From Prevotella sp. (GTDB lineage: Bacteria; Bacillota; Clostridia; Christensenellales; UBA1242): a DNA stretch of 64,000 nucleotides. Positions 9,003 through 24,779 of the stretch are shown piece after piece. Position 1 is the stretch's first letter, and each line of letters starts with the position of its first letter. The notes under the pieces are model-generated. The model saw only the letters and a list, made by a program, of their open reading frames with translations. It was not told where the DNA came from and searched no databases. The DNA is taken from positions 3,027 to 67,026 of the forward strand of contig JAMPCO010000003.1 of the NCBI GenBank assembly GCA_023666145.1, read 5' to 3'. The translations under genes and the position numbers were made by a program.

Positions 9003-9709
9003 ATAATTTGACTTTTGCGCACAAATTTCCAATCGCCACTGGCTAAATTGCCCAAAGTCAATTTGCCTTCTTGCAAACGGATCAGGTGGGTGACTTGCAG
9101 GCCTAAGGTTTCAAACATTTTGCGAATTTGCCGATTGCGTCCTTCGTGGATGATGACTTGGATTTGGGTACGGTCGTGTTGCAGATAGGAAAATTCCGCG
9201 GGTGCCGTTTGGACACCATCGATCTTGACCCCGTGGGATAAAGTTGCTAATTCGGCCTTGGTGACGGGGCGGTTGACCGTAGCGTGATAGATTTTATTGA
9301 CGTGGGTGGACGGATGCGTTAATTGCTTGGTCAAAGCGCCGTCGTTGGTTAGCAGTAGCAAACCACACGTCTGATAATCCAAACGGCCAACGGGGTACAG
9401 GCGCACCGTTTTTAACAGGGTCGCGTATTGCTTGGGATTTTGGCGAATCACGTCCAAAACGGTGGTTCGACCTTGGGGGTCAAAAGTGGTGGTAACCACG
9501 CCCGCGGGTTTGTTCAATAAAATGTAGACTTTGTCGGTCGGGGGTTGGACGGGGCGGTTGTCGACCGTTACGGTCGCATCATCGGGAATGATGGTGGCTA
9601 AATTGGTAATCACCACCCCATTCAAACGGACACGTCCCGCGGTGATCAACGTTTCCACATGGCGGCGGCTGCCGAGTCCACACAAAGCAAGATATTTGTT
9701 TACGCGCAT
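8999..9709 (-). CDS. rluB: Pseudouridine synthase, RsuA/RluB family with S4 domain
   Basis: The ATG at 9709 gives MRVNKYLALCGLGSRRHVETLITAGRVRLNG (S4 domain). The catalytic motif GRLDYQTCGLLLLTNDG is present. The track ORF's upstream extension is hydrophobic junk. Confidence 0.9.
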   Translation of the reverse strand: MRVNKYLALCGLGSRRHVETLITAGRVRLNGVVITNLATIIPDDATVTVDNRPVQPPTDKVYILLNKPAGVVTTTFDPQGRTTVLDVIRQNPKQYATLLKTVRLYPVGRLDYQTCGLLLLTNDGALTKQLTHPSTHVNKIYHATVNRPVTKAELATLSHGVKIDGVQTAPAEFSYLQHDRTQIQVIIHEGRNRQIRKMFETLGLQVTHLIRLQEGKLTLGNLASGDWKFVRKSQII

Positions 9710-9726: not shown

Positions 9727-10535
9727 TGAAAATGATGAATATCCTAATCGCAAATGTGCGGAATTTAGAGTCACGGGAATTAAAAGTGTTGGCGGGTGAA
9801 CTGGCAAAAAAACACACGGTGACGGTTTGTTCGCTGGAAGGTCCAGGACGCCAAAAGGGTAATGCGTTTTCTTACGGGGGTTTCCCAATTAAGTTCAAAC
9901 AGATTTCCAATTATACGGTTAACGGCGTGCGGATTCCCGCCTATAAATTTGACGGCACACCCGCGGATATGATTTCGGTCATGTTGGGCAACATTATGCA
10001 ACACCGTAAACCGCATTTGGTGATTTGTGGGATTAGCAACGGGATTTCGTTGGGTACCGACGTCTTTTGCTCATCGAACATTGGAATGGCGATGCAAACC
10101 GCTTTCAATAATATCCCGTGTATTGCGGTTGGCGTGCCAATGCAAATCGGGGGACACAGCGAAGCCGAATTGTTACCGGCGGCACAATTCATCGCGAAAA
10201 ACGTGGAAAAATTTGCCAAAGCCAAATTACCGACCGATACGTTCTTGAATATCACGCTTCCGATTGTCAAAAAATACGACGATTACCAAGGTGTTGGCAT
10301 TTCTTCCATGGATAATTTGACCAAGATGACGCGCTATTTGGAAAAAGTGGATTGCAAAGGCAACAAATACTACTGGGCTCAATTGGTTGAACGCGACAGT
10401 TCCCAAAAAGCCACGGTGGCACCGACCGCGGGCATGGCGTATTTCAAAAAGAATTACATCATTATGGCTCCGTTGACCTATAACTGCACCGACGCCGCCC
10501 ATTTGGCAGAAATGCAAAAGGAGGTCGTCAAATGA
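9726..10535 (+). CDS. SurE-like 5'/3'-nucleotidase paralog 1, catalytic DD motif absent
   Basis: SurE fold markers are present: GTPAD, CGISNGISLG, IAVGV. The N-terminus reads MNILIANVRNLE where SurE has NDDG. Three candidate ATGs lie at 9726, 9732 and 9735. The stop overlaps the next gene (ATGA). Confidence 0.8.
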   Translation: MKMMNILIANVRNLESRELKVLAGELAKKHTVTVCSLEGPGRQKGNAFSYGGFPIKFKQISNYTVNGVRIPAYKFDGTPADMISVMLGNIMQHRKPHLVICGISNGISLGTDVFCSSNIGMAMQTAFNNIPCIAVGVPMQIGGHSEAELLPAAQFIAKNVEKFAKAKLPTDTFLNITLPIVKKYDDYQGVGISSMDNLTKMTRYLEKVDCKGNKYYWAQLVERDSSQKATVAPTAGMAYFKKNYIIMAPLTYNCTDAAHLAEMQKEVVK

Positions 10536-11302
10536 AAATTTTATTGACGAACGAAGCGGGTTGCTTCCACCCTGGGATTGTGGCGTTGGCGAAAGAACTT
10601 TGTAAAGACCACCGTGTGTGTATTGTCGCACCGTTGACGCGACAGAGTGGTGCGGGACATTCTTTAACGGTCGACCAACGTCCGTTGCACGCACAACAAT
10701 GGTTTGTGTTGGACAACGTGAAAATGTGGTCGGTAGATGGTACGCCGTGTGATTGTGTTGCGTTGGCGTTGGATAAATTGTTATTAGACAAACCCGATTT
10801 AATCATTACGGGGATTGACCCCATCAATAATCTGGGCAATTTGATTTACAGCAGTGGGGTGGTCGCGGCCGCCATGGAAGGGGCGATTCAAGGCATCAAA
10901 AGTATTGCCATTAGCGCTGCGATTAAAGCGGAAAAGAAAGAACGGGCTTACCGTCATGTGGCGAAGTATGTTGCGCGTAAGTTAGAATTTTTGGTGACCA
11001 AAACACCTGATTACGGGGTCTTGAACGTGAATTTCCCCGACAAAGTGCAACCTAAGAAAGTGATGCCCGCCGCTTTAACGGACGGAATTTTTATCAACGA
11101 ATACGAAATTGAAGTCAATCCGTTTGGCTCGACGTTTGCTTGGGTTAAAAATCCGTTAATGGAATTCGGCTTGGACGCTTACGAACAAAAAGGCGATTTA
11201 TGTTGGTTGAAACAGGGCTACATTACTTTGACGCCCTTGAAATTGGATTTATTAAAAGGCGAGGCTTTAACGGCCTTACAAAAGGCAGGGATTAAATTAT
11301 GA
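10532..11302 (+). CDS. surE: SurE-like 5'/3'-nucleotidase paralog 2, DD motif replaced by EA
   Basis: MKILLTNEAGCFHPGIVALAKEL compares with canonical MRILLSNDDGxxAPGI. APLTRQSGAGHSLT, GTPCDCV and YSSGVVAAAMEG all align to SurE. GGAGG Shine-Dalgarno lies 8 nt upstream. Confidence 0.88.
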   Translation: MKILLTNEAGCFHPGIVALAKELCKDHRVCIVAPLTRQSGAGHSLTVDQRPLHAQQWFVLDNVKMWSVDGTPCDCVALALDKLLLDKPDLIITGIDPINNLGNLIYSSGVVAAAMEGAIQGIKSIAISAAIKAEKKERAYRHVAKYVARKLEFLVTKTPDYGVLNVNFPDKVQPKKVMPAALTDGIFINEYEIEVNPFGSTFAWVKNPLMEFGLDAYEQKGDLCWLKQGYITLTPLKLDLLKGEALTALQKAGIKL

Positions 11303-11961
11303 GTATCAACATTGCGATTGACGGACCCGTCGCCAGCGGAAAAGGGGCGGTCACCAAAGGGTTGTCGGCTAAATTGGGAATTCCCGCATTGGATACGGGT
11401 GCCGCTTACCGTGCGGTCACCTTGTATCTGTTGGAAAATAACATCGATTTGCACGATGAAAAACGGATTTTGATGACCTTGAATAAAATCGAATTGCGTT
11501 TGTACGTCACAGACCACCATGCGGTGCGGGTTTTTACCCAAGGGCAAGATGTGACGCCGCGGATTCGCGACAACCGTGTCAGTGTGGCGGTGCCCACCGT
11601 GGCGGCGTATGTTGGCGTGCGTGATTACGTCAACCGGCAAATTGCGTTGGTGGCAGCGCAAGGTGATTGCATTATGGAAGGGCGTGACATCGGGACGGCG
11701 GTTTTGCCCCAGGCTCAATACAAGTTTTATTTGACCGCTTCGTTGGAAGTGCGTGCCAAACGTCGGAAAGCGGATTTGGATGCCAAGGGCGAACATTTGT
11801 CTTTATTGGAAGTGATGGCGCAAATTAAGCGGCGCGATGAACAGGATATGACCCGCACGGTGGCGCCGTTGAAACAGGCTCCTGATGCCATTTACCTGGA
11901 CAACAGTGATCTGACGTTGGAACAAACCATTGACACAATGGCAAAATACATTAAAATGTAA
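11299..11961 (+). CDS. cmk: Cytidylate kinase
   Basis: IAIDGPVASGKG P-loop and overall Cmk-like sequence. ATGA overlap with the upstream gene. Confidence 0.93.
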   Translation: MSINIAIDGPVASGKGAVTKGLSAKLGIPALDTGAAYRAVTLYLLENNIDLHDEKRILMTLNKIELRLYVTDHHAVRVFTQGQDVTPRIRDNRVSVAVPTVAAYVGVRDYVNRQIALVAAQGDCIMEGRDIGTAVLPQAQYKFYLTASLEVRAKRRKADLDAKGEHLSLLEVMAQIKRRDEQDMTRTVAPLKQAPDAIYLDNSDLTLEQTIDTMAKYIKM

Positions 11962-11964
11962 GTA

Positions 11965-12330
11965 ATGGAAACGATTGTGCACGTGGAAAACGGCGAATAT
12001 TTGGGACAGACACGCTTTGCTAACGATTTGTTACGCGAATCGTTAATGCTGTGCGTGAAAGAAGTGCGTGGTGTGGCGGGGATTGGCAAACATATGCGCA
12101 GTAACAAAAACAAAATTAAAAATTTGAAAATCAGCCGCTGTAAGGACAGTAACCATTTGATCGTCGACATTAACCTGTTGGTGTCAACGGGCTTTTCCGT
12201 GCCTGACGTGGCTTACCGCGTGCAAGAAGCCGTGTTGAATACCGCCACGCAATTTACGAACGATAAAATTGACCAAGTCAATATCTATGTACGGGGCGCA
12301 AAGTATGGGGCAAGCACTAAGCAGAAGTGA
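11965..12330 (+). CDS. Asp23/Gls24 family envelope-stress protein (YqhY-like)
   Basis: 121 aa with Asp23-family features (...VRGVAGI...VDINLLVSTGFSVPDVAYRVQEAV). It lies immediately upstream of nusB, as yqhY does in Bacillus. Confidence 0.85.
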   Translation: METIVHVENGEYLGQTRFANDLLRESLMLCVKEVRGVAGIGKHMRSNKNKIKNLKISRCKDSNHLIVDINLLVSTGFSVPDVAYRVQEAVLNTATQFTNDKIDQVNIYVRGAKYGASTKQK

Positions 12331-12706
12331 GTCCCGCGAAGTTGCTTTCCGTTTGATTTTTGCCATGGGACAGCAGACGGTTTGGGATGCGGACGCGTGG
12401 AATTTGGCGTTGGACGGTAAAACGGCACCGACACCCGAACAACAATACATCACCAAAATTGTGGAAAAGTTTACCGAACTACGAACGGAGATTGATGCCA
12501 AGATTAGTGCGCATTTGCAGAAATGGACGTTGGATCGTTTGCGCCAAACCGACTTAGCCGCGTTACGTTTAGCGGCGACCGAAATGGCGTTGGGAACTGT
12601 CCCTGTACCAGTGATCATTAACGAAGCGGTCAGTTTAGCCAAAAAATACGGGGAGGCATCCAGCGGTGCGTTCGTGAACGGGGTGTTAGCACAACTGGCG
12701 GAGTAG
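12305..12706 (+). CDS. nusB: Transcription antitermination factor NusB
   Basis: The ATG at 12305 gives MGQALSRSESREVAFRLIFAM...AALRLAATEM...INEAVSLAKKYG, which is NusB-like. The start is uncertain (track TTG at 12269). Confidence 0.88.
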   Translation: MGQALSRSESREVAFRLIFAMGQQTVWDADAWNLALDGKTAPTPEQQYITKIVEKFTELRTEIDAKISAHLQKWTLDRLRQTDLAALRLAATEMALGTVPVPVIINEAVSLAKKYGEASSGAFVNGVLAQLAE

Positions 12707-12707
12707 C

Positions 12708-13706
12708 ATGGAACTATCGGTTACACAATTAAACAATTACATTAAATCGGTGTTTGTCGCCGAAGAAATGTTGCACAACATCCTTTTGAACGGAGAAGCG
12801 TCGGGCGTGTCGGTACGTGGCAACGGCGTATGGTTTACTTTGCGTGACCGCGAAGCGGCGATCCCGTGTGTTTGTTGGGAAAAAGCCCGTTGTGCGGTGA
12901 AGGACGGTGACCAAGTCACTTTACGCGGCACGGTCGATTATTGGCAGAAGGCGGGTAAAATCAATTTTAACGTCCATGCTTTGGTCAAGACGGGGGCGGG
13001 CGCATTGTTAGAACAGTTACAAGCCTTGACCGAAAAATTGCAGCGCGAAGGTTTATTTGACCGCAAAAAAGCGTTACCCAGTCAAGTTAAACGTATCGGG
13101 GTGGTCAGTTCCCGTTACGGTGCGGTGATTCATGATATTATGACGGTGACTAAACGGCGCAACCCGTTGGTGGATATTGTGTTATATCCTGCCGCGGTGC
13201 AGGGGGAAAACGCCGCCCGTGAAATTTGTGCAGGCGTGGCATATTTCAACCGTACCCAAACGGTTGATTTAATCATTGTGGCACGGGGTGGTGGTTCCAA
13301 CGAAGACCTGTCGTGCTTTAACACCGAAGATGTCGCCCGTGCCGTGGCAGGCAGTACTTTGCCGATTGTGGCCGCGGTCGGACACGAGACCGATTTTACT
13401 TTGGTGGATTACGTGGCGGATTTACGGGCCCCGACGCCCTCTGCCGCCGCCGAAATGGTGATTCCCGAATTGGTCTCACAAAAAGATGTGGTGCTGCGCT
13501 TGTGGTCACAAATGAAGTACAGTATTACCAGTCGTTTGCAACAATTACGCACCCAAGCGTTGGGCTTTTTGCATTTATTCCCGCAGGACTTTGTTGCGGT
13601 GGCGAAAGACGGGCAAGTGGTCAAAAGCGTCCGCGATCTAAAACCCAAAGACAAATTGCAAATTTGTTTTAATGATGGTAGAATTGGAGTAACAGTCGAT
13701 GAATAA
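12708..13706 (+). CDS. xseA: Exodeoxyribonuclease VII large subunit (compact, 332 aa)
   Basis: N-terminal OB fold (LSVTQLNNYIKSVF...GEASGVSVRGNGVWFTLRD) and catalytic core (RIGVVSSRYGAVIHDI, ARGGGSNEDL). Confidence 0.92.
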   Translation: MELSVTQLNNYIKSVFVAEEMLHNILLNGEASGVSVRGNGVWFTLRDREAAIPCVCWEKARCAVKDGDQVTLRGTVDYWQKAGKINFNVHALVKTGAGALLEQLQALTEKLQREGLFDRKKALPSQVKRIGVVSSRYGAVIHDIMTVTKRRNPLVDIVLYPAAVQGENAAREICAGVAYFNRTQTVDLIIVARGGGSNEDLSCFNTEDVARAVAGSTLPIVAAVGHETDFTLVDYVADLRAPTPSAAAEMVIPELVSQKDVVLRLWSQMKYSITSRLQQLRTQALGFLHLFPQDFVAVAKDGQVVKSVRDLKPKDKLQICFNDGRIGVTVDE

Positions 13707-13887
13707 AACCATTGCGGAATTAGAAAAATTAACCCAATCCATTCAGGCGGAAAAACGGATTGACCAAGCCTTGGATAGTTTTATCAGTGGCGCTGAATTG
13801 GTTAAAACGGTCTTAAAGGAATTGGACCAAGCCGAAGGCAAGGTGTACGCAGTCGTTAACGACGTGGAACAACTGTTGGAGGAATAA
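13699..13887 (+). CDS. xseB: Exodeoxyribonuclease VII small subunit
   Basis: 62-aa helical protein that overlaps the xseA stop. Typical XseB size and position. Confidence 0.88.
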   Translation: MNKTIAELEKLTQSIQAEKRIDQALDSFISGAELVKTVLKELDQAEGKVYAVVNDVEQLLEE

Positions 13888-15455
13888 TGCTGAATACCTT
13901 ACGCATTCAAAATTTGGCTTTGATTCCGGCGGTAGAAATCAATTTCGGTGCGGGGTTTAACGTCTTAACGGGGGAAACCGGGGCGGGTAAATCGATTATT
14001 ATTGGCAGTTTGAATTTTATTTTTGGTGACAAGTTATCGGTGAATGCGATTCGTCACGGGGCGGACTTGGCACGGGTGACCGCGGTGTTCGATGATACGA
14101 TTATCGTGCGTACTTTGCACGCGAACGGCAAAAGTGAAATTCGGGTCAACGATGAACCCATGACTTTGAAAGGTTTACGGGAAGTGGCCAGCGGTTTGAT
14201 CGATATCCACGGACAGCACGACACCGAAAAATTGTTGGACCCCAAAAACCATTTAAGGATTCTGGACGCGTTTGCCCAAACCGATTTGACCGCTTACCAA
14301 TCCGCGTATGCGCAGTTACAGGCGTTACGGAACGAATTGGCGACTTACGGGGATAACCCCGCCGAGCGAGCGCGCTTGTTAGATTTATACCAGTACCAAA
14401 TTAACGAAATTGAACGGGCACATTTGTCGGCGGACGAAGAAGAAAGTTTGAACCAACGGGCTTTGGTGTTACGCAACGCCGAAAAATTAGCGGAAGGTTT
14501 ACAAACCGTAGTAGATAATTTGACCGACGCGGACGGCGCGTTGGGTGTGGCGCAAAAACGGCTTTTAGGCATTCAACAATACGATGAAAAGTTACAGACA
14601 CTCGCCACACGTCTGAACGCCGCCAGTAGTGAAATCGGTGACATCTTCATGGAGTTACGGGATTATGCGGAGCAGACCGATTTCAGTGCGGATGCGTTAG
14701 AAAGTGTTTACGACCGTTTGGATGAAATCAAAAACTTGAAACGCAAATACGGTGCGACGGTGACGGATGTTTTGGCGTTTGCGGAAAAGACGAAAGCCGA
14801 ACAGACGCGCTTATTACAAGCGGGGGATACGATCGACCAATTGCAAACCCAAATTGCCGCCCAAACCGCGGTGGTGACCCAGTTAGCGACCCAATTGACG
14901 GCCGTACGTCAAGCGGCGGCCAAGGAATTGGCAGCCCAATTAACCACCCAATTAAAAGACCTTGGCATGGAACAAACCCAATTTGATGTCCAGTTCAATG
15001 CGGTTACCCCCAAAAACAACGGCGCGGACGCAGTTGAATTTCTGTTTTCCGCGAATGTGGGCGAACCCGTGCGCCCGTTAGCGCAAATTATTTCGGGTGG
15101 GGAAATGAGCCGTTTAATGTTGGCATTGAAAACGGTCGCAAATCCCGAACCCCAAAAGACCTTGGTGTTCGATGAAATTGATACGGGCATTTCGGGTAAA
15201 ATGGGGCTGGCGTTGGCGACTAAGTTGGCGGCGCTGGCGCGTCAATCCCAAATTATCGTGGTCACCCATTTGGCGGCGGTAGCCGCGGCGGGGCAGACCC
15301 ATTTCTTAATTCAAAAAAATGTGGAAGCGCACCAAACCATTACTAACGTTTATCCGTTAGATGCGCCCGCCCGCGAACAAGAAATCGCGCGGATTATCGG
15401 TGGTGGTGACACGGCGCTGGCCCATGCACGGGCTTTGTTGACTGCCCAAGGTTAA
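13887..15455 (+). CDS. recN: DNA repair protein RecN
   Basis: Starts MLNTLRIQNLALI. Walker A GETGAGKS, a long coiled coil, the C-terminal signature ISGGEMSRLMLAL and Walker B LVFDEIDTG. Confidence 0.95.
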   Translation: MLNTLRIQNLALIPAVEINFGAGFNVLTGETGAGKSIIIGSLNFIFGDKLSVNAIRHGADLARVTAVFDDTIIVRTLHANGKSEIRVNDEPMTLKGLREVASGLIDIHGQHDTEKLLDPKNHLRILDAFAQTDLTAYQSAYAQLQALRNELATYGDNPAERARLLDLYQYQINEIERAHLSADEEESLNQRALVLRNAEKLAEGLQTVVDNLTDADGALGVAQKRLLGIQQYDEKLQTLATRLNAASSEIGDIFMELRDYAEQTDFSADALESVYDRLDEIKNLKRKYGATVTDVLAFAEKTKAEQTRLLQAGDTIDQLQTQIAAQTAVVTQLATQLTAVRQAAAKELAAQLTTQLKDLGMEQTQFDVQFNAVTPKNNGADAVEFLFSANVGEPVRPLAQIISGGEMSRLMLALKTVANPEPQKTLVFDEIDTGISGKMGLALATKLAALARQSQIIVVTHLAAVAAAGQTHFLIQKNVEAHQTITNVYPLDAPAREQEIARIIGGGDTALAHARALLTAQG

Positions 15456-16489
15456 TTGGCAGAAGTTTCGTCTTCGGTGTGGTGTTTACGATTACGTTTG
15501 CGGCGGGGCGTCTTTTTGGGTTTGAGGGTGTGACGGTTAGGAAACATCCAAACCGCGACCGCGACGCAGGCGACCACCATGACGGCACAAACAATAAAAA
15601 ACGAACCCAGGTTATCCAGGTGGTCAAAGGGTAAATCGACGTTCATACCGTAGATACCCGCAATCAAGGTCGGAATCGCCAAGATGATGGTAACAATGGT
15701 TAACAAACGCATCCGTTCGGCTAATTGGTTACTGACCAGGTTGTTGTAGGTGCTCATGGTTTCGGTCATCAATTCACGTTGCAGGTTACAGGTGGCGAAG
15801 GCTTGCTTGATTTCGACGATAATGTTTTCCAAAGTTTCGACGTCGTCTTCGGTCAAGTTCTTTTGTGCCAGAGACTTTTCTGCTACCACAATGTTTTGGC
15901 GTAAAGACGAAGCAAAGTAAATTAACGCATTTTTCAGACGCATTAACTCACGGAGGTTGGTGTCCGTGTCACGGGATTGCATTAACTTGCTTTCTAAACG
16001 GGTACTGGATTTGTCAATCATGCGCAAATAAGTTTCGTACAGGCTGTGGAAAGCCAATAAGCATTGGTAATTGATTTTTTGACTGTCCAGCAGACTGTTG
16101 GTGCGTAAAGTGCCTTGTTTAATTTCTTGAAATTTGAAATGGTCTTGCAAACAAACGGTCACGGTTAAATTCCCCTTTTGAATCATGGATAACGGGATCG
16201 TGGTGTAAGGCGCATCACTGCTGTGGTCACGTTGCACCACGGGAATGTCAAAGACGGTTAACTTGTAATGGGTGTCGTCGTCTTCGTCCAAGCGCGGACC
16301 TTCTTCGTCGTCCAAGGCCGAACGCACGAAATCTTCGGGAATCTGCAATTCATCAATCACACGGTGGACTTCGATTTCGTTCGGGTTGGTTAATTGCACC
16401 CAAATGCGTTCGTTGGTCGGCAAAGATAATAAATCGTGGGTTTCGATTTTTACATATTTGCCGTCACGGTTGACCATTACGTTTGTCAT
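15452..16489 (-). CDS. corA: CorA-family Mg2+/Co2+ transporter with basic C-terminal tail
   Basis: GMN motif (GIYGMNV) between two C-terminal TM helices. The ATG at 16489 (MTNVMVNRDG) has a promoter 6 nt upstream. The stop overlaps the recN stop by 4 nt (convergent). Confidence 0.9.
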   Translation of the reverse strand: MTNVMVNRDGKYVKIETHDLLSLPTNERIWVQLTNPNEIEVHRVIDELQIPEDFVRSALDDEEGPRLDEDDDTHYKLTVFDIPVVQRDHSSDAPYTTIPLSMIQKGNLTVTVCLQDHFKFQEIKQGTLRTNSLLDSQKINYQCLLAFHSLYETYLRMIDKSSTRLESKLMQSRDTDTNLRELMRLKNALIYFASSLRQNIVVAEKSLAQKNLTEDDVETLENIIVEIKQAFATCNLQRELMTETMSTYNNLVSNQLAERMRLLTIVTIILAIPTLIAGIYGMNVDLPFDHLDNLGSFFIVCAVMVVACVAVAVWMFPNRHTLKPKKTPRRKRNRKHHTEDETSAN

Positions 16490-16495
16490 GTGCTC

Positions 16496-16525
16496 ATTGT
16501 ATGCCTGTTTGTGAAATAAAGTCAA
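16496..16525 (-). promoter_or_regulatory. sigmaA-type promoter of corA (leaderless-type)
   Basis: Minus strand: TTGACT (16525-16520), 18 nt spacer, TACAAT (16501-16496), 6 nt, then ATG (16489). Confidence 0.55.
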
Positions 16526-16545
16526 GAATTGTTGCAAATAATAAC

Positions 16546-16574
16546 TTGCTAATCTTGCGGATTGGTTTTATAAT
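16546..16574 (+). promoter_or_regulatory. sigmaA-type promoter of the large surface-protein gene (leaderless-type)
   Basis: TTGCTA (16546-16551), 17 nt spacer, TATAAT (16569-16574), 7 nt, then ATG (16582). No Shine-Dalgarno. Confidence 0.6.
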
Positions 16575-16581
16575 TATCAAC

Positions 16582-19500
16582 ATGGACAAATTGAAAAGAA
16601 GTTTGAAACGTTTGATTGCACCCGCCATTGTGCTTTTGTTGGTGGCGATTATGGGTGTGTTTAGCCCGGCCGTTTCGGTTGCGGCGGCATTACGCGTGAA
16701 CCCAATGAGCGTGACAGATACCAATCCTTTTACCATTACTAACTTACCCGCACGTACCGTGGAATTGGGTACTGATGCGGCGACGGTCACCGTGCCAACA
16801 ATTAACAACAACGGTGTGGTGGTGTTGAGTCATGCGGGTAAAAACATCAGTACGTTCCCCGATAACAAATATACCTACCAAGAAATCGGTCAATACGAAT
16901 GGCGTTTTTACACCGATGACACCAAAAAAGTGCTATTTGACACTTACACCGTGACCGTAACCGATACCACCTACGGCATGACGATGCCCGACAACGTGGT
17001 GACGGTGGCACCGAAAGATCTCGACCAATTAACCTTACCGTTGCCGTCCACTTACCGTGTGGCGGAAAAAACCGTGGAAGTTACCGAAATCGTTGAAGAC
17101 GAAAGCGGTAAATACGCGGTCGTTACTTTGCAAGACGATGATAATCAAAAAGTAGATTATATCTTACGTGCCAACATTACTTTGGAAAATGAAAATCTGA
17201 ACGACAAAATTACGGCGTTTGACCAAGATGGCATGGTCATTGATTTGAGCGATAATAAGAACACGGGTGTTTTGAAAGTTACTTACCAATTATTGAACGC
17301 CACCAGTCAAAAACTTTTGGTGGCGGTACCTTTGTCCGACATTGAAATTAAAAATATCACTAAAAGCCAAGTGACGTTTGCGAATATCCCGACCGCGCCC
17401 AGCGTGAAAAGTTTAGCCTATTATTCCAGCATCAGTTTAACCGCCCCCACCGCAGATAGTGCTAAAGTCGGTTCGACTTCGTTCAACGTTGAAGCCCAAA
17501 CCACCATCTGCCAAGTGCAATGCTACTTGTACTCCGACGAACCCAGCGATTGGACCGCTAAAAACAGTAAAATTCACAATTTGACCGTGGAAAAAGAGGA
17601 CGGGGCATGGGTCGTGAAAGAAAACGGCACCGCGGTCGACTATTTGGAAATTGATGACTTGACCGTGAAAATTAAAGCGTTGGGTTGGTATCGTTTCCAA
17701 TTCCAAACATCGACTTTGTTTGGTTACCAATTAGACGACGATTTTGACACCGACGACGTCAACATCGAACAAGACCCCAACAATTCCTACGTCCGTTATT
17801 GGAGCGACAGTATCCGTATCTACCGTGACGCCGTTGAACCCAGTTTCGCTTGGGTGGCTAATTACAACGAAGATGACAGCGCGACCATCGAAAATTACAA
17901 TAAAAATTTCAGCACCTTGCAAGAATATGATGTTTATTTGCCGATGACCGAAAAACCCGATGCGACTACGTCACAAAAAATTACCATTAACTATGACGGT
18001 TTAGTCTTGCCTGCAATTTTCCCACACGACAATGCTACTCCGTTCGAAAAAATGAAAGTCACTGCCTTCAATATTGAACAAATCCAAAATGTCGACGGTG
18101 AATCCATTACGTCGAATGATAACTATGTTTACAGTGGCAGTGAAAATGACAGCAAAACTTTTGTTTACGATATGACGGATCCTTTACAAATCCAATTCGT
18201 CATTGACGGCGCTACGCGTGCACAAGGCAACAATGTTGTGCAACTTTACCAACGTGAAGGTTTATACCGTGTACGCATCGTGGTGGAAGAAGAACAACCG
18301 ACTTTTGAAGATGGCACCCGTTACAGCGGTGGTTACGCGAATACCAAAACCAAATATTTGTACTTTTATGTCGACAGTGATTACAAATGCGGTACGGACG
18401 GTGAAAATTCGCCTGTGATTGACACCAACAATGTGTTCCAAGTCAGCGATGTTTATTTGTGGGAAGGTCACACCTTCGATTTCCGTATCCCGACCGTGAC
18501 CGATGCCCATACGCCCGCCGATGACATCCAAATTGATTATTATTTGGTCAATGCTGATGATCAAAGCAAAACATATAAATTGGATTACAATGTTAACGCG
18601 TCACACGTTACGGTTGATTTGGATGATTTGGACGGATTCGATACCAAAGATTTGTTGACGGACGTCGATTACTACATTTATGCGGTGGCACGCAATTTCA
18701 ACGGAATGCAAGCCAAATTGAAAGTAGAAGCGAATCCTGTCATCAAAGATGAAAATGTCGCCGATAACAAATATTTCGAGGAAGCCTTGTTTAGCAAATT
18801 AGACACTGACGAAATCGCACAATATGGTTATGCGTGGAAACGTGCCGCGTTTACCATTTACGCGACCAAAGACAGCAGTAAAGCCGATGCAGACTTCACG
18901 GTTACACCCAACAACGACAATTCCTACAAGGCGGGTGAAAAAGTGGTTTTCGACAGCATCAAAGTAGCATGGAGCGATAATACCGTCGTGGACGGACAAA
19001 TGACCGTCGCCGTGTATTTAATGAAAGACAACGGTACGCGTGTGCCAGTCAACATGGTAAACAGCAGTAACAGTTCCGCGGAAATTGTCAGTGCGGTGGC
19101 GTTTAACGCCAGCAGTTACGAAGCCACGGATTGGAGTTTCACTCCTGGTGTCGGTGGTACCTACATCCTGGTGATCACCGCCAAAGAACACGCCAGCAGT
19201 CAAATCCAAACCTGCGTGAAAACCATTGAAGTTGCATCCAGTGGTGATTGGAACATTACTCCGTTAAGTGTGTCTCCTGCCGCGGCCACCAATTACACGA
19301 TTGATGCCACGATCAGTTTAGGGGAAAGCGCCGTGTTGCCCAATTATGTGGTCAGTAAAGACGAACAAGGTGGCACAAAATATTTTGCGAAAAATCGTCG
19401 TTTGTATCCATACGACGATAACGGCAATGTTACCGACGGACCCGAAGGTTACTATACCATTACCGTGATGGGGGTCAACGATCCGAATTGTATCATCGGT

Positions 19501-20979
19501 AACAAATTTGTCCCGAACAAAACGGGAACTTACATTTTCCAATATACTTTTACGAAAGACAATGTCTTGAAAACCACCAATTATGTGGTGCAGGTTAACG
19601 ACAGCAGCAGTGGTGTTGCCAGCATCCGTATGGGCGAAGAATACGACGACAAAACTGTTTTGCCCAATGCCGATGCACCAACAGACGCTGATAGTGGAAA
19701 AACTACTAACAAGGTTGGTGACTTCACCTACGTTGTCGAAACTCGTACCGCAGACAATCCAGCGTACGCGATTATCTTACCAGAATTTATCGCGTCGAAC
19801 TATGGTGCCGCAACTGATTTCGTGGTCGACAGTGCGTACCTGTATGATTATTTGGAACCGATATACGAAGAAAAAGAAGGCAAAATGGAAATTACGGGTT
19901 ATCTGTATCCCGCGATTGCGATCCCGATGCCGAACGTCATTGCCGATACCACCAGTTCCGACGAAGTAGAAATCACCGTGCAAAAGAGCGGCAGCAGTAA
20001 CTACTTGGTTTCCAGCAAAAAATTGAATGCCGGTGGCAGCAGTAACAAAGCCAGTGTGATTACCCAAATTGATGGTTACTATGTTTTCCGCCCCGATGGT
20101 AAATTCTCCAAAGATTGCAAGGATACAGAAAAGTACAATCCCCAAACTTATCAACTTGCCGCGGTCAGTACCAGCGGTGCAACGGGCGTTTACACCGTGT
20201 CTTACAAAACCAATAGTACCAGCGTGAACTTCAACGTGACCATTGGTAACTTGGAAAATGGGGAATTGGCTTTCAATGAAGGCTTCTTAACCTACAACAA
20301 TGACGACGGCAAAGGGGCGCAAGCAATTACCGATACGGGCGACACCAACAACGTGGTGATTGAAAAAGTCGACGGTCATCGTTATGTTACCATTGATTTG
20401 TCCAAACTTTATTTTACGGGCAACAGTGATATGCAAGACTTGATCAATGAGGGACCGAATCCCGCTAACGACAACGATGGTTGCCACCCCGACCATTTGG
20501 ATACGGAATACCTTTATAAAAATGTGAGTGTTACGGTCAGTTACGAAGGTAGTTCGTTTATCAGTACCAGCGATTGGTCAGATGCGGATGATGAAACCAA
20601 AGCGCTTAAAATTTATGGTGACCAAGGTGACGGTTACAAATATCAATACAAATTTGATTTAACTGGTGGCAGCGGTACCTACAAAGTCAACGTTTCCATG
20701 GTTAACAAATACACTGGTAATACGATTTCGAATTCGATTGAATTTACGATTGATGTGGATGCAACCAACAAAAACACCAACCTGAACACGGTTTGGGGTA
20801 TTATCCTGGTGGTGTTGTCACTTGGTCTGTTGGCGGGTATGGTCTTCTACTTCGTGAAAACTGCACGGGCAACCCGTTTCGTTGATGCGCCCAGCGCCGT
20901 CAAGGATAAAAACAAAGTTAAGAAGGACAAACCTGTCGCCCCAAAAGCGGTGGAGGCACCCCAAGAAGATGTTAAATAA
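16582..20979 (+). CDS. Large (1466 aa) secreted, C-terminally membrane-anchored surface protein built of Ig/PKD-like beta-sandwich modules
   Basis: The ATG at 16582 gives the signal peptide MDKLKRSLKRLIAPAIVLLLVAIMGVFSPAVSVAAA. The G-x-Y-x-hydrophobic strand motif recurs (GQYEWRFY, GWYRFQFQ, GLYRVRIV, GTYILVIT, GTYIFQYT, GVYTVSYK, GTYKVNVS). The C-terminus has a TM helix (VWGIILVVLSLGLLAGMVFYFV) and a Lys-rich tail. No LPXTG, SLH or choline-binding motifs were seen. Confidence 0.85.
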   Translation: MDKLKRSLKRLIAPAIVLLLVAIMGVFSPAVSVAAALRVNPMSVTDTNPFTITNLPARTVELGTDAATVTVPTINNNGVVVLSHAGKNISTFPDNKYTYQEIGQYEWRFYTDDTKKVLFDTYTVTVTDTTYGMTMPDNVVTVAPKDLDQLTLPLPSTYRVAEKTVEVTEIVEDESGKYAVVTLQDDDNQKVDYILRANITLENENLNDKITAFDQDGMVIDLSDNKNTGVLKVTYQLLNATSQKLLVAVPLSDIEIKNITKSQVTFANIPTAPSVKSLAYYSSISLTAPTADSAKVGSTSFNVEAQTTICQVQCYLYSDEPSDWTAKNSKIHNLTVEKEDGAWVVKENGTAVDYLEIDDLTVKIKALGWYRFQFQTSTLFGYQLDDDFDTDDVNIEQDPNNSYVRYWSDSIRIYRDAVEPSFAWVANYNEDDSATIENYNKNFSTLQEYDVYLPMTEKPDATTSQKITINYDGLVLPAIFPHDNATPFEKMKVTAFNIEQIQNVDGESITSNDNYVYSGSENDSKTFVYDMTDPLQIQFVIDGATRAQGNNVVQLYQREGLYRVRIVVEEEQPTFEDGTRYSGGYANTKTKYLYFYVDSDYKCGTDGENSPVIDTNNVFQVSDVYLWEGHTFDFRIPTVTDAHTPADDIQIDYYLVNADDQSKTYKLDYNVNASHVTVDLDDLDGFDTKDLLTDVDYYIYAVARNFNGMQAKLKVEANPVIKDENVADNKYFEEALFSKLDTDEIAQYGYAWKRAAFTIYATKDSSKADADFTVTPNNDNSYKAGEKVVFDSIKVAWSDNTVVDGQMTVAVYLMKDNGTRVPVNMVNSSNSSAEIVSAVAFNASSYEATDWSFTPGVGGTYILVITAKEHASSQIQTCVKTIEVASSGDWNITPLSVSPAAATNYTIDATISLGESAVLPNYVVSKDEQGGTKYFAKNRRLYPYDDNGNVTDGPEGYYTITVMGVNDPNCIIGNKFVPNKTGTYIFQYTFTKDNVLKTTNYVVQVNDSSSGVASIRMGEEYDDKTVLPNADAPTDADSGKTTNKVGDFTYVVETRTADNPAYAIILPEFIASNYGAATDFVVDSAYLYDYLEPIYEEKEGKMEITGYLYPAIAIPMPNVIADTTSSDEVEITVQKSGSSNYLVSSKKLNAGGSSNKASVITQIDGYYVFRPDGKFSKDCKDTEKYNPQTYQLAAVSTSGATGVYTVSYKTNSTSVNFNVTIGNLENGELAFNEGFLTYNNDDGKGAQAITDTGDTNNVVIEKVDGHRYVTIDLSKLYFTGNSDMQDLINEGPNPANDNDGCHPDHLDTEYLYKNVSVTVSYEGSSFISTSDWSDADDETKALKIYGDQGDGYKYQYKFDLTGGSGTYKVNVSMVNKYTGNTISNSIEFTIDVDATNKNTNLNTVWGIILVVLSLGLLAGMVFYFVKTARATRFVDAPSAVKDKNKVKKDKPVAPKAVEAPQEDVK

Positions 20980-21343
20980 GACCGAAGCCCATGTCATGGC
21001 TTACATTTTTGAAAAGTGTAAGGGCGAAAACAAAGGCATCTTTACCCCCAAAGAATTGTTGACGGCGTTGATGCCGCACTACGAAATTACCGCTAAACAA
21101 TTAGACGTCGTCATCAGCAATTTGGCTTTGGATGATTACATCGAATGCGAAAAGAAAGACAAGGACGGCAAAGTTTATTTTTTAGTTTCGTTGACCATGC
21201 GGGGGGCGGCTTTTGACCGCGAACGACAGTCGCAAAAACGCCAAATGTTCCGTTCCGTGATGTGGAAATTGGCTTTGACGGTGGGTGGTGCAATTTTGGC
21301 GTTTATTTTGGGTCTGTTATTAAACCGTGTTTTTGGAAAATAA
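20969..21343 (+). CDS. Small winged-helix (BlaI/CopY-like) protein with C-terminal transmembrane anchor
   Basis: The ATG at 20969 overlaps the last 11 nt of the surface-protein gene. MLNKTEAHVMAYIFEKCKG..ITAKQLDVVISNLALDDYIECEKKDKDGKVYFLVSLT resembles a wHTH. The C-terminal WKLALTVGGAILAFILGLLL is a TM helix. An alternative start lies at 20996. Confidence 0.65.
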   Translation: MLNKTEAHVMAYIFEKCKGENKGIFTPKELLTALMPHYEITAKQLDVVISNLALDDYIECEKKDKDGKVYFLVSLTMRGAAFDRERQSQKRQMFRSVMWKLALTVGGAILAFILGLLLNRVFGK

Positions 21344-21349
21344 TCAAGT

Positions 21350-23320
21350 ATGGATTTCAAATTAGTGGCTCAGTACCAACCGACGGGTGACCAACCGCAA
21401 GCGATTGCGGCGTTAACCCAAGGTATCAAGGATGGTTTGCGCCACCAAGTTTTGTTGGGTGTGACGGGCAGTGGTAAGACTTTTACCATGGCGAACGTGA
21501 TTAAAAATGTGAACAAGCCTACCTTGGTGATTGCGCACAACAAAACTTTGGCGGCACAATTGTGTAACGAGTTTCGGGAATTTTTTCCCCAAAATCGCGT
21601 GGAATATTTTGTCAGTTATTACGATTATTACCAACCCGAAGCCTATTTGCCCGCGACCGATACTTACATTGAAAAGGACATGGCAATCAACGACGAAATC
21701 GATAAACTGCGCCACGCGGCAACCACGTCATTGTGCGAACGCAACGATACGATTGTTGTGGCTTCGGTATCCTGTATTTATGGCTTGGGTGAACCGCAAG
21801 AATATTTCAAAATGGGCATTTCGTTGCGCCCGGGCATGACGCTGAACCGCCGCGATTTGGTCACGCGTTTGGTCAACAATCAATACAAACGCGCCGATGT
21901 TGATTTTGTGCGGGGTAGTTTCCGCGCGCATGGCGATGTGGTGGATGTGATTCCGTCTTATGCTTCCAATGTGGCGGTGCGGATTCAATTTTGGGGTGAC
22001 GAAATCGATGGCATTTTCGAAATTGACGCTTTGACGGGACAAAAAATTTCTTCTTTGTCACATATCGCGATTTTCCCTGCTTCGCATTTTGCGGTGGGTT
22101 CGGAACGTTTACACGAAGCAATTGAAAAAATCCGTGCCGATTTAGCCATCCAAAAAAAGTTTTTTGATGATAACAACATGGTGGTGGAAAGTCATCGCAT
22201 TATCCAACGCACCAATTACGATTTGGAAATGTTGGCGGAATTGGGTTTTGTGAAAGGCATCGAAAATTACTCGCGTTACTTTGACGGGCGTCAACCAGGC
22301 GAACCGCCGTACACCTTGATGTCGTATTTTCCTGATGATTATTTGGTGTTTATTGACGAATCGCACATTACTGTCCCGCAAATTCGGGGGATGTTCAATG
22401 GCGATCGTGCCCGTAAAAAAGTGTTGGTCGATTTTGGTTTCCGTTTGCCGTCGGCCTACGATAACCGTCCCTTGAATTTTCAAGAATTTAACCAACGGTT
22501 GGGGCAGTGCATCTACGTATCGGCGACGCCTGAGCATTATGAATTGGATTTGGCGGGTGACCATGTGGTGGAGCAAATTATTCGCCCCACTGGATTGTTG
22601 GATCCAGTGGTGATTGTCCGTCCCAAAGACCACCAAGTCAGTGATGTTTTGCACGAAATCCGCACGGTGGCGGCGGGTAAAGGCAAAATTTTGGTCACGA
22701 CCTTAACCAAAAAAATGGCGGAAGATTTAACCGCATTCTTAACCGAAAATCAAGTGCGAGTGCGTTATTTACACAGCGAAATTGATACATTGGAACGTAC
22801 CGAGATTTTGACCGCGTTCCGTCAAGACCAATTTGATGTAATTGTGGGTATCAATTTGTTGCGAGAAGGTTTGGATTTGCCCGAAGTCGCATTGGTGGCA
22901 ATTTTGGATGCGGACAAGGAAGGTTTGTTTCGTTCTACGCGCGCTTTGATTCAAACAATTGGGCGGGCGGCGCGCAATGCACAAGCCCGGGTTATTTTGT
23001 ATGCCAACGCGGTCACCCCCAGTATGCAAGCCGCAATGGACGAAACGGCACGGCGCCGTCAAATTCAAATGGACTATAATACCAAGCACAACATCACGCC
23101 GCGCACGGTGTATAGTTCGATTAAAAATTCGCTTTACATTACCAAAAAAGCCAAGGGTGATACTACCGCAGAAAATTTGTCGGTGGAACAATTGACCGCG
23201 TTGATGAATACCGCCAGCCAGAACCTTAACTTTGAATTGGCGATTCAATACCGCGAACGGATTAACGCTTTACAAGCCAAAAAAGTGGGGCGCAAAGCAC
23301 CCAAAACCAAACCGAAATAA
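21350..23320 (+). CDS. uvrB: Excinuclease ABC subunit B
   Basis: 656 aa. Motifs: YQPTGDQPQAI, Walker A GVTGSGKT, YYDYYQPEAY, the helicase motifs, and the C-terminal UVR domain (ELAIQYRERINAL). Confidence 0.97.
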   Translation: MDFKLVAQYQPTGDQPQAIAALTQGIKDGLRHQVLLGVTGSGKTFTMANVIKNVNKPTLVIAHNKTLAAQLCNEFREFFPQNRVEYFVSYYDYYQPEAYLPATDTYIEKDMAINDEIDKLRHAATTSLCERNDTIVVASVSCIYGLGEPQEYFKMGISLRPGMTLNRRDLVTRLVNNQYKRADVDFVRGSFRAHGDVVDVIPSYASNVAVRIQFWGDEIDGIFEIDALTGQKISSLSHIAIFPASHFAVGSERLHEAIEKIRADLAIQKKFFDDNNMVVESHRIIQRTNYDLEMLAELGFVKGIENYSRYFDGRQPGEPPYTLMSYFPDDYLVFIDESHITVPQIRGMFNGDRARKKVLVDFGFRLPSAYDNRPLNFQEFNQRLGQCIYVSATPEHYELDLAGDHVVEQIIRPTGLLDPVVIVRPKDHQVSDVLHEIRTVAAGKGKILVTTLTKKMAEDLTAFLTENQVRVRYLHSEIDTLERTEILTAFRQDQFDVIVGINLLREGLDLPEVALVAILDADKEGLFRSTRALIQTIGRAARNAQARVILYANAVTPSMQAAMDETARRRQIQMDYNTKHNITPRTVYSSIKNSLYITKKAKGDTTAENLSVEQLTALMNTASQNLNFELAIQYRERINALQAKKVGRKAPKTKPK

Positions 23321-23367: not shown

Positions 23368-23811
23368 ATGACAACAACAATGATTGTAGTTTGGGCAGTG
23401 ATTATGGCGTTCACCTTGTTATTAGAGTTTTTCACCGTGGACTTCTTTGCTTGCTGCTTTTCGGTCGGTGCTTTGGTCGCTTTGATTTTGGCGGCTTGCG
23501 GCGTGAACATTTATTGGCAAGTGGGTGTGTTCTTTGTGTTGACCATTGTGGCAATTGGGGCGACACGTCCGTTGGTTAAACGTTTCATGAAAAAACCGAC
23601 GGTGCCGACCAACGTCGACCAAAACTTCGGTAAAACCGCACGTCTGTTGGCGGACGTCGTGGACGGTCATTCTTCGATTAAAATTAACGATGTCGTGTGG
23701 CAAGTGGCATGCGATACTAATTTGAAACAAAATGATTTGGTCACCATTGAAAGTGTGGAAGGTAACAAAATGGTCGTGAAAGCGGCCGAGAAGGAGGAAA
23801 GTAAAAAATGA
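23368..23811 (+). CDS. NfeD-family membrane protein
   Basis: 147 aa with N-terminal TM helices and a C-terminal OB-like soluble domain (GKTARLLADVVDGHSSIKINDVVWQVACD). ATGA overlap with the SPFH gene, which is the classic NfeD-SPFH pairing. Confidence 0.85.
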   Translation: MTTTMIVVWAVIMAFTLLLEFFTVDFFACCFSVGALVALILAACGVNIYWQVGVFFVLTIVAIGATRPLVKRFMKKPTVPTNVDQNFGKTARLLADVVDGHSSIKINDVVWQVACDTNLKQNDLVTIESVEGNKMVVKAAEKEESKK

Positions 23812-24719
23812 CACCTTGGTTAATTGCGATTATTGTTATCGGTGTGGCGTTGGTTGTAATTTTTGCACTGTCGGTGCGCATTGTTAAGCAAGGAACGGCG
23901 GTCATCGTCGAACGTTTGGGTAAGTACCACAAAACTTTGGGTACGGGCTTGAAGTTCATTGTGCCGTTCATTGACCGTGCTTTGCCGATGATCAGTTTGA
24001 AAGAACAAGTGGCCGATTTCAAACCACAGCCAGTGATTACCAAAGATAACGTTACCATGCAAATTGACAGTGTGGTGTTTTTTCAAATCGTCGACCCGAA
24101 ATTGTACACTTACGGGATTGAACGTCCGATGCAAGCGATTGAAAATTTAACCGCCACTACTTTACGTAATATTGTCGGCGAATTAGAATTGGACGAAACG
24201 TTAAGCAGTCGTGATACCGTGAACACCAAAATGCGCGAAATCATTGACACGGCGACCGACCCATGGGGCATTAAAGTTAACCGTGTGGAATTGAAAAACA
24301 TTTTACCACCCGCCGCGATTCAAGAAAGCATGGAAAAGCAAATGCGTGCCGAACGTGAACGTCGGGAAAACATTTTGCTGGCGGAAGGTGAAAAGCGCAG
24401 TAAAATTTTGGTTGCCGAAGGTGAAAAAGAAGCGGAAATTTTGAAAGCCGAAGCGCGTAAGATTGCGTTATTAACCGAAGCCGAAGGTCAACAACAAGCG
24501 ATTGAAAAAATTGTGGCGGCAAAACCCGACGCGGCTTATTTGACTTTGCAAGGTTATGAAGCCTTGAAAGCGTTGGCGGTGGGCGAAGCCACCAAAATCA
24601 TAGTCCCGAACGATTTAGCCAATGTAGCGACTTTGTTTTCCACGATTAAAGAAACGGTTGCAATGCCCGCAACGGACAAGGGCACAACCACCACCAAAGC
24701 CAAAAGTAAACAAAAATAA
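23808..24719 (+). CDS. SPFH/band-7 (stomatin/QmcA-like) protein
   Basis: N-terminal anchor, then VKQGTAVIVERLGKYHKTL..., the PHB domain, and an EA-rich coiled coil. Confidence 0.92.
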   Translation: MTPWLIAIIVIGVALVVIFALSVRIVKQGTAVIVERLGKYHKTLGTGLKFIVPFIDRALPMISLKEQVADFKPQPVITKDNVTMQIDSVVFFQIVDPKLYTYGIERPMQAIENLTATTLRNIVGELELDETLSSRDTVNTKMREIIDTATDPWGIKVNRVELKNILPPAAIQESMEKQMRAERERRENILLAEGEKRSKILVAEGEKEAEILKAEARKIALLTEAEGQQQAIEKIVAAKPDAAYLTLQGYEALKALAVGEATKIIVPNDLANVATLFSTIKETVAMPATDKGTTTTKAKSKQK

Positions 24720-24746: not shown

Positions 24747-24779
24747 AAGACTTGCCCATGCGTGGCAAGTCTTTTTTTA
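24747..24779 (+). terminator. Rho-independent terminator after the SPFH gene
   Basis: A 10-bp perfect stem, aagacttgcc (24747-24756) with ggcaagtctt (24764-24773), a 7-nt loop, then a T-run. Confidence 0.8.

Follow-up and report, generated by a model that had tools for sequence, protein, structure and literature searches.

To our knowledge, regulators anchored in the membrane are known mainly as ToxR-type proteins of Proteobacteria. It has been documented that regulators can act while membrane-bound, often in cooperating pairs, and those of the ToxR type often work in such pairs or with a membrane partner (PMC11856585). Representatives such as ToxR/ToxS, TcpP/TcpH, CadC, PsaE/PsaF and VtrA combine an N-terminal cytoplasmic winged helix of the OmpR type (Trans_reg_C), which binds DNA, with one transmembrane (TM) segment in N-in/C-out orientation and an extracytoplasmic sensor domain. 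Here, we describe a locus in a 64-kb stretch of contig JAMPCO010000003.1 (assembly GCA_023666145.1; the whole stretch is called the window below, and coordinates follow its numbering), in which the gene of a giant surface protein (hereafter the large protein) is overlapped by a small gene, B, whose predicted product is a winged-helix protein ending in a TM segment. The main finding is an unannotated family of tail-anchored winged-helix paralogues (B and, in related lineages, a second small protein, A) that are tied to the uvrBA excision-repair genes and, ancestrally, to the giant variable surface protein.

B resembles the ToxR type in its N-terminal cytoplasmic winged helix and its single N-in/C-out TM segment, and A and B likewise form a pair. 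It differs in that the domain is PadR/MarR-like rather than OmpR-type, in having no sensor (0-4 residues follow the TM segment among family members, and approximately two in B of the window), and in that DNA binding is putative and the family is confined to uncultured Clostridia. The BlaR1-BlaI/MecR1-MecI and CopY systems also have a small winged-helix regulator (~120-125 amino acids, aa) encoded beside a membrane sensor. BlaI and CopY are soluble, whereas B ends in a TM segment instead of a soluble dimerisation domain; unlike BlaR1, the large protein lacks both protease and penicillin-binding domains, and the neighbouring genes encode neither a protease nor a sensor domain. The best structural neighbours of B are the single-helix PadR protein Rv3488 and the MarR proteins MepR and MftR, which have the same winged helix followed by a C-terminal helix; in B, however, this helix runs into the membrane, the recognition helix is acidic or variable, and Pfam membership is lacking. 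RodZ carries a small cytoplasmic helix-turn-helix-type domain on one TM helix, as B does, and binds MreB, so that a membrane-tethered domain of this kind need not bind DNA; its domain is of the XRE type, it has a sizeable extracytoplasmic domain, and it has no sequence similarity to B. The large protein shares long beta-sandwich strings with EA1 and Sap of Bacillus anthracis, SbsB and the MG strings of alpha-2-macroglobulin but, unlike S-layer and sortase-anchored proteins, it lacks SLH, CWB2 and LPXTG elements and is held by a C-terminal TM helix.

An earlier sequence-only reading of this DNA had described B as a BlaI/CopY-like winged-helix protein ending in a TM helix, and had named a winged-helix fold prediction as a test. 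Both the winged helix and the TM segment hold, but the BlaI/CopY label does not. The structure model of B (predicted local distance difference test score, pLDDT, 76.5) follows the order H1-b1-H2-H3-b2-b3 (H1 4-17, b1 22-25, H2 27-34, H3 42-54, wing strands b2 58-65 and b3 68-75), after which one helix spans residues 77-122 and includes the TM segment. The top 50 Foldseek matches of this model were nearly all MarR or PadR proteins and included no BlaI/CopY structure. MftR was matched with E = 1.3e-4 and PadR Rv3488 with E = 1.6e-4 at a root-mean-square deviation (rmsd) of 3.1 Å over 96 columns; further PadR structures gave an rmsd of 3-4 Å, whereas MarR structures covered the winged helix with a full-length rmsd of 6-13 Å, and the extra N-terminal dimerisation helix of MarR is absent from the B model. 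Judged from the model, B represents an orphan winged-helix family with a PadR-like plan, in which the winged helix is followed by one C-terminal helix running into the membrane anchor. The part of this helix that connects the two is basic (family mean net charge +3.7, with K78, G79, R84, E85, K90 and R91 conserved) and precedes a single hydrophobic segment (aa ~96-123), an arrangement that fits the positive-inside rule.

B has 77 close homologues at 48-98% identity, mostly 122-124 aa long, which share its start and all come from metagenomes or from metagenome-assembled genomes (MAGs) labelled Clostridia. A profile search of 1.84 billion representatives (E <= 1e-3) extended the family to 183 clusters at 50% identity, nearly all of 110-130 aa and aligned from end to end, including the TM segment. 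Their source names are nearly all "hypothetical protein" and none carries a Pfam domain, although two JGI entries had been labelled automatically as "predicted transcriptional regulator" and "MarR family". When 94 members were compared with Pfam, sub-threshold matches to assorted winged-helix families were obtained (HTH_34 in 10 of the 94), and the families listed did not include PadR (PF03551), MarR (PF01047) or Trans_reg_C; Penicillinase_R (PF03965) was matched neither by B of the window (E <= 1) nor by any of the 94 (E <= 0.1). A sequence profile search of the PDB was negative for B and the large protein alike. As far as these searches reach, the B family is unannotated and confined to uncultured Clostridia, and membership of BlaI/CopY, PadR or MarR by sequence is ruled out by the profile searches. 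That the small reading frame might be spurious or an artefact of the overlap is ruled out by the 77 homologues with the same start and by the invariant overlap and Shine-Dalgarno (SD) sequence described below.

Semi-conserved cysteines occur across the B family at positions 17 (69%), 23 (63%) and 72 (58%), of which B of the window keeps C17 only. Placed where H1 ends and within strands b1 and b3, they should lie close to each other in the fold and could provide most members with a redox or metal site.

Two sets of related loci were compared. A related-locus search with a narrower B alignment returned the close clade alone, which amounts to 16 loci with the window included (L005 and L009-L022), and exact-protein look-ups provided a survey of 11 lineages outside this clade (L001/L002, L004, L007/L008 and L023-L030). 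Wherever the contigs reach, all 16 clade loci have the gene order recN, corA (opposite strand), large gene, B, uvrB, nfeD and band-7. The sequence-only reading had pointed out an 11-nucleotide (nt) overlap between the large gene and the 124-aa gene, and had proposed the conservation of the latter beside large-gene homologues as a test; both were found in 16/16 loci, the overlap reading ATG(T/C)T(A/G)AATAA throughout (ATGTTAAATAA in the window). The SD sequence of B is embedded in the large gene at about -16 in every one of these loci (GAGG-type, with AAGG in two), despite differing tails. In the 15 of 15 loci that cover the other end of B, uvrB starts 2-9 nt past the B stop and has no SD sequence of its own; this short gap and the lack of an SD suggest that translation of uvrB is coupled to that of B. 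No positionally conserved internal promoter was found in the clade within the last 400 nt before B.

Outside the clade, a second small gene of B-like architecture, A, directly precedes B in all 11 lineages. The two are paralogous (hhalign probability 99.1%, E = 1e-18), and A has Gly-rich TM segments. uvrB lies directly 3' of B in nine of the 11 lineages and is directly followed by uvrA in seven of these nine, and the A-B pair occurs without uvrB in L025 and L027. A large protein of 966-1700 aa with a signal peptide and a C-terminal TM helix is encoded upstream of A in four lineages (L004, L007, L023 and L024); such a gene is absent from that position in six (L025-L030), and a contig end precludes a call in L001/L002. 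The large proteins of L004, L023 and L024 share a LAGVV(I/F)YFV TM motif with the window protein and have little in common with it beyond this motif and the last module, whereas the TM helix of L007 differs; faint matches to Big and Bact_surface_Ig-like were seen among these distant positional equivalents. In a neighbour-joining tree of UvrB the lineages with the large gene are paraphyletic, and L026, L028, L029 and L030, which are without it, form one clade. The comparison points to an ancestral order large-A-B-uvrBA with one loss of the large gene, and the association between large and small genes is, judged from gene order, older than the clade of the window.

No A paralogue was detected elsewhere in the 64-kb window by tblastn, and the clade appears to have lost A, as the UvrB tree suggests. 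The direct overlap of the large gene with B in the window goes with this absence of A. A TAA within the conserved "AAT AA(G/A)" codons of B ends whichever gene reads into it; in L029 this gene is A, which has an 11-nt overlap with B. uvrA is also missing from the window, the clade having nfeD and band-7 after uvrB instead.

The large protein itself is of an ordinary kind with a less usual anchor: its signal peptide and its modelled tandem beta-sandwiches place it among multi-immunoglobulin (Ig) surface proteins. The reading frame had been correctly recognized before, but the 1466 aa then given include the stop codon and the protein has 1465. An alternative upstream TTG start (16483) is unused by homologues, all of which start with MDKLK or MNKLR. 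Exactly two hydrophobic segments are present (aa ~7-39 and aa ~1400-1428), in agreement with the signal peptide and single C-terminal TM helix that had been read from the sequence; an AXA site lies near A34-A36 and the N-terminus is kept in homologues. The tail (KTARATRFVDAPSAVKDKNKVKKDKPVAPKAVEAPQEDVK) is Lys-rich as described, with nine Lys in 40 residues. The recurring strand motif G-x-[YF]-x-h-x-h occurs nine times, compared with 1.3 +/- 1.1 times in shuffled sequences (n=1000, maximum 6). An AlphaFold2 model of aa 36-1235 (42-sequence alignment, mean pLDDT 83.7, predicted template-modelling score, pTM, 0.66) is almost entirely beta, with no helix longer than 12 residues, and shows ~11 sandwich-sized modules by an approximate count from its secondary structure, so that the seven to eight modules proposed earlier were a safe lower bound. 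Residues 1236-1400, outside the model, leave room for one or two further modules.

Sequence and structure searches placed the large protein in no known family. No LPXTG-like motif was found by pattern search and no SLH or cell wall-binding Pfam match at E <= 1, as the sequence-only reading had held; nothing significant was obtained from Pfam or NCBIfam, enzyme domains included, and the protease domain that it had declared missing is indeed without a Pfam match in the large protein. None of the 42 homologues has a Pfam domain, and the search that retrieved them detected no relatives beyond this group of Clostridia. Foldseek matches of the model were generic Ig/MG/FN3 strings only (template-modelling score, TM-score, ~0.1; 8-13% identity), including alpha-2-macroglobulins, complement proteins, EA1, Sap, SbsB, GhpA and phage Ig-decorated proteins. 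An alpha-2-macroglobulin identity was rejected, since the matches are generic (TM-score ~0.12) and a thioester-type helical domain is absent from the model of aa 36-1235, although no pattern search was aimed at the CGEQ motif of such domains; a phage origin was likewise rejected, a viral structure library having given generic Ig-string matches only.

Within the clade, the large protein is by far the fastest-evolving, with 36-62% identity to the window protein compared with 87-96% for UvrB, 89-94% for band-7 and 74-90% for B, and it is presumably a variable surface coat or adhesin. Conservation within it is among the highest in the TM and juxtamembrane segment, with W1405, G1415, L1416, G1419, Y1423, F1424, T1427, R1429, T1431 and F1433 invariant and a KTAR(A/E)TRF(V/L)DxP motif kept throughout the clade. 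The distal K/P/A-rich tail varies in both length and sequence, and the final four tail residues are dictated by the overlapping MLNK start of B.

We tentatively favour the reading, at somewhat less than an even chance, that B is a sensor-less transmembrane regulator, possibly modulated through TM contacts, that stands beside the gene of a variable surface coat or adhesin. B would dimerise through its long helix and TM segment, with itself in the window and with A elsewhere. In single-helix PadR proteins the C-terminal helix mediates dimerisation, and in the dimer the two C-terminal helices lie opposite the DNA-binding face; because of this placement, a membrane-anchored B dimer could still present its winged helices to DNA, its geometry pointing them away from the membrane. 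B would then regulate membrane-proximal DNA, with its own operon as the likeliest target, and the locus would be kept at the membrane by co-translational insertion of the 1465-aa secreted protein from the same mRNA. The TM helices of the large protein and of B may plausibly be in contact, but such contact cannot be obligatory for the family; small residues recur at four-position spacing in both (G107, A111 and G115 in B, G1415 and G1419 in the large protein). No relevant report of a tail- or membrane-anchored winged-helix or PadR protein emerged from our literature search.

Several points weigh against a regulatory role of B at its own operon. DNA binding by B is putative: helix 3, the putative recognition helix, is acidic or variable (60% Asp/Glu at position 46) and the net charge of the winged-helix domain averages -0.3 (both n=94), the basic residues of the domain are confined to the wing tip (K65, K66, G67) and N-terminal Lys, and the threshold of a Pfam DNA-binding family was reached by 0/94 members. 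The best conserved residues (L2, E6, L52, D55, Y57, D/E59, G79, R84 and E85) are not at typical base-contacting positions. An inverted repeat, (G)CCAA(T)...(A)TTGG(C), at 16549-16568 extends across the -35 hexamer and spacer of the large-gene promoter, and its arms are kept in ~10/13 loci while the intervening bases change; as a candidate operator it is only suggestive, and the -35 element places a constraint of its own on the left arm. The dimerisation of B and the contacts between TM helices are inferred from sequence patterns alone, and it is by prediction that the large gene, B, uvrB, nfeD and band-7 appear to form a single, tightly coupled transcription unit behind the leaderless promoter. 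Why uvrBA should be so tightly linked is explained neither by this model nor by any other.

The same features of the domain are in favour of an adaptor, in which the winged helices of B and A, without binding DNA, would bring a cytoplasmic partner to the membrane or arrange it there, or else would stabilise the anchor of the large protein. Besides an acidic and variable helix 3, a domain net charge of about zero and best conserved residues that are atypical for base contacts, the weak Pfam similarities of the family include the non-sequence-specific winged helices Rpc34, MCM WHD and RQC. On the other hand, the closest structural neighbours are nearly all DNA-binding regulators, the wing tip is basic, and the gene context offers no candidate partner except uvrBA, with which an interaction would be hypothetical. 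We consider such an adaptor possible, though rather unlikely.

The sequence-only reading had proposed a dedicated pair, in which the large protein is the extracellular sensor and B its cognate membrane-tethered DNA-binding effector in one-step signalling. Part of this stands, as the association is real and older than the clade: adjacency and overlap are strict in 16/16 clade loci, a large surface gene lies upstream of A-B also in L004, L007, L023 and L024, the TM and juxtamembrane segment is well conserved with a motif common to deep lineages, and small-xxx-small motifs are present in both TM segments. What is put in doubt is the exclusiveness, because the constant partner of B is A (11/11), followed by uvrB (9/11), with the large protein present in 4/11 only, and because the overlap goes with the suggested loss of A in the clade. 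Six of the 11 outside lineages keep A-B with no large gene there, so that the family works without one, unless that gene has moved elsewhere. An ectodomain of 36-62% identity is less what one would expect of a conserved ligand sensor than of a variable coat or adhesin. The tail is no conserved docking site either, since its distal part is variable and its last residues have to accommodate the SD sequence and the start codon of B. The proposal is further weakened because helix 3 is acidic and variable and the fold is PadR/MarR-like instead of BlaI/CopY-like, and DNA binding by B is putative here too. The pairing of the large gene with B is therefore real, yet probably not that of a dedicated sensor and its effector, an arrangement we regard as unlikely.

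Somewhat more improbable still is a previously undescribed trans-envelope module of uncultured gut Clostridia, in which the sensor-less A/B regulator is gated within the membrane by the conserved TM helix of the giant, fast-evolving surface protein; this gating could operate by sequestration or by protection from intramembrane proteolysis. If true, the state of the surface (adhesion, shedding, phage or antibody attack on the coat) would be coupled directly to transcription of an operon with excision-repair genes.

B might also be a stored regulator that is inactive at the membrane and freed by a housekeeping site-2-type protease, with A or the TM helix of the large protein protecting it. A near-absent extracytoplasmic stub, N-in/C-out orientation and Gly residues in the TM helix are features of site-2 protease substrates, and B has an almost absent stub, this orientation and the helix-destabilising G106, G107 and G115. 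However, these Gly are moderately conserved in the family (17% at 106, 34% at 107 and 62% at 115), and no protease gene linked to the locus was found, which makes this explanation very improbable. The least credible view, for which we see hardly any chance, is that the adjacency is meaningless, the small genes being 5' passengers of a uvrBA operon and the large gene a neighbour retained by synteny: uvrB follows B in nine of the 11 outside lineages whatever lies upstream, and LexA-like sites differ in position (upstream of a 122-aa gene, A and B in L028, between B and uvrB in L023 and L024), but the translational coupling of large gene, B and uvrB is the same in all 16 loci, deep lineages that are paraphyletic again have the order large-A-B, and A-B persists without uvrB in L025 and L027.

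If the favoured reading of B as a sensor-less transmembrane regulator is right, the family could add a new form to the small group of regulators that function while tethered to the membrane: a tail-anchored PadR/MarR-like winged helix that has no sensor, usually occurs as a paralogous pair and belongs to Gram-positive spore-formers living in animal guts. Should its winged helix turn out not to bind DNA, the family would still represent a new membrane adaptor. An unannotated protein family (~183 clusters at 50% identity) and a conserved gene order, A-B-uvrB-uvrA, are defined as well. The large protein, whose anchoring differs from that by sortase, SLH or CWB2, is a candidate for a major variable surface antigen or adhesin of these uncultured Clostridia. 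The features of the locus in the window are listed in Table 1.

Table 1. Features of the large gene-B-uvrB locus in the window (~ marks approximate boundaries)
Feature	Position	Strand	Basis or remark
Promoter-like site TTGCTA-17-TATAAT	16546..16574	+	10/12 consensus match; 7 nt from -10 to ATG
Large surface protein gene	16582..20979	+	ATG to TAA; 1465 aa + stop
Signal peptide, aa 1-~36	16582..16689	+	Basic n-region, hydrophobic core, SVAAA cleavage region
Extracellular region, ~1365 aa	16690..20787	+	Beta-sandwich modules by AlphaFold2 model
TM helix of large protein, aa ~1403-1425, WGIILVVLSLGLLAGMVFYFV	20788..20856	+	Hydrophobicity; conserved motif
Cytoplasmic tail, aa 1426-1465	20857..20976	+	Follows TM helix
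SD GGAGG for B	20952..20956	+	Inside tail codons of large gene
Small gene B, 124 aa	20969..21343	+	ATG to TAA; predicted tail-anchored winged-helix product
B winged-helix domain, aa 1-76	20969..21196	+	Structure model
B basic connecting helix, aa 77-99	21197..21265	+	Model and family alignment
B C-terminal TM segment, aa ~100-122, KLALTVGGAILAFILGLLLNRVF	21266..21334	+	Hydrophobicity and model
uvrB	21350..23320	+	Start 6 nt past B stop; own SD absent
nfeD and band-7/SPFH genes	23368..24719	+	Probably distal part of same transcription unit
Terminator-like hairpin, 10-bp stem and T run	24747..24773	+	Strongest such site after large-gene promoter

The promoter-like site was compared among 12 clade loci (the window, L005, L009, L010, L012-L015, L017, L018, L020 and L022). 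Its -35/-10 arrangement and the spacing to the ATG (TTGCYA-17) are kept in 12/12, with TATAAT, TACAAT or TATATT as the -10 hexamer. No SD sequence precedes the large gene, and a leaderless mRNA is predicted because the -10 element ends 7 nt before the ATG without one. A -10 hexamer ~5-7 nt before the start was also seen at gene A in L001 and L004 and at uvrB in L001 and L023, and leaderless mRNAs may be common in this lineage. On the opposite side of the promoter, the listed TTG start of the corA-like gene (15452-16537, minus strand) probably lies too far 5': in most loci the alignment with homologues begins at residue ~16-17, so that an ATG near 16489 is the probable start, which implies a divergent promoter region of ~90 nt common to the corA-like and large genes.

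No Cheo-type LexA box was found in or near 16000-21400, and SOS control of the window locus was ruled out on this basis; the sole exact GAACN4GTTC in the window, at 38193, equals the count expected by chance. In other lineages, a perfect Cheo-type box (GAACGAATGTTC) lies at 9194-9205 of L028, upstream of an operon composed of the 122-aa gene, A, B and uvrBA, and degenerate boxes lie between B and uvrB in L024 (AAACATTTGTTC, 10339-10350) and L023 (AAACATTTGTTT). The small genes may be SOS-controlled in some lineages only, the positions of the LexA-like sites being inconsistent.

Two further loci show peculiar arrangements. In L007, from termite gut, a near-identical duplicate of ~50 bp stands before A and before B (9390-9472 and 9920-10000) and contains, shortly before the SD sequence, three direct repeats of TTTAACAT; the duplicated stretch may be a shared regulatory site. 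In L027, A-B is followed by a gene with a TfoX_N domain (10375-10692) and then, ~1 kb downstream, by one for a 1947-aa protein with Flg_new repeats (11551-17394).

The DNA comes from an uncultured spore-forming Firmicute. Besides the locus described here, the window encodes SpoIIE, AddAB, SecA, a V-type ATPase and a nusB-xseA-xseB-recN block; scans with Rfam and for tRNAs gave no matches across it. The MAGs of the related loci are labelled Clostridia, Eubacteriales or Firmicutes, with L009 as the exception. The Prevotella label of the source is judged erroneous because of SpoIIE, AddAB, the Firmicute-type gene order and the MAG labels of the relatives. The NCBI protein NC133_00785, which is identical to the large protein of the window, and L009, a locus with a 90%-identical small protein, are both filed under "Prevotella sp." MAGs, which is almost certainly a binning or labelling error.

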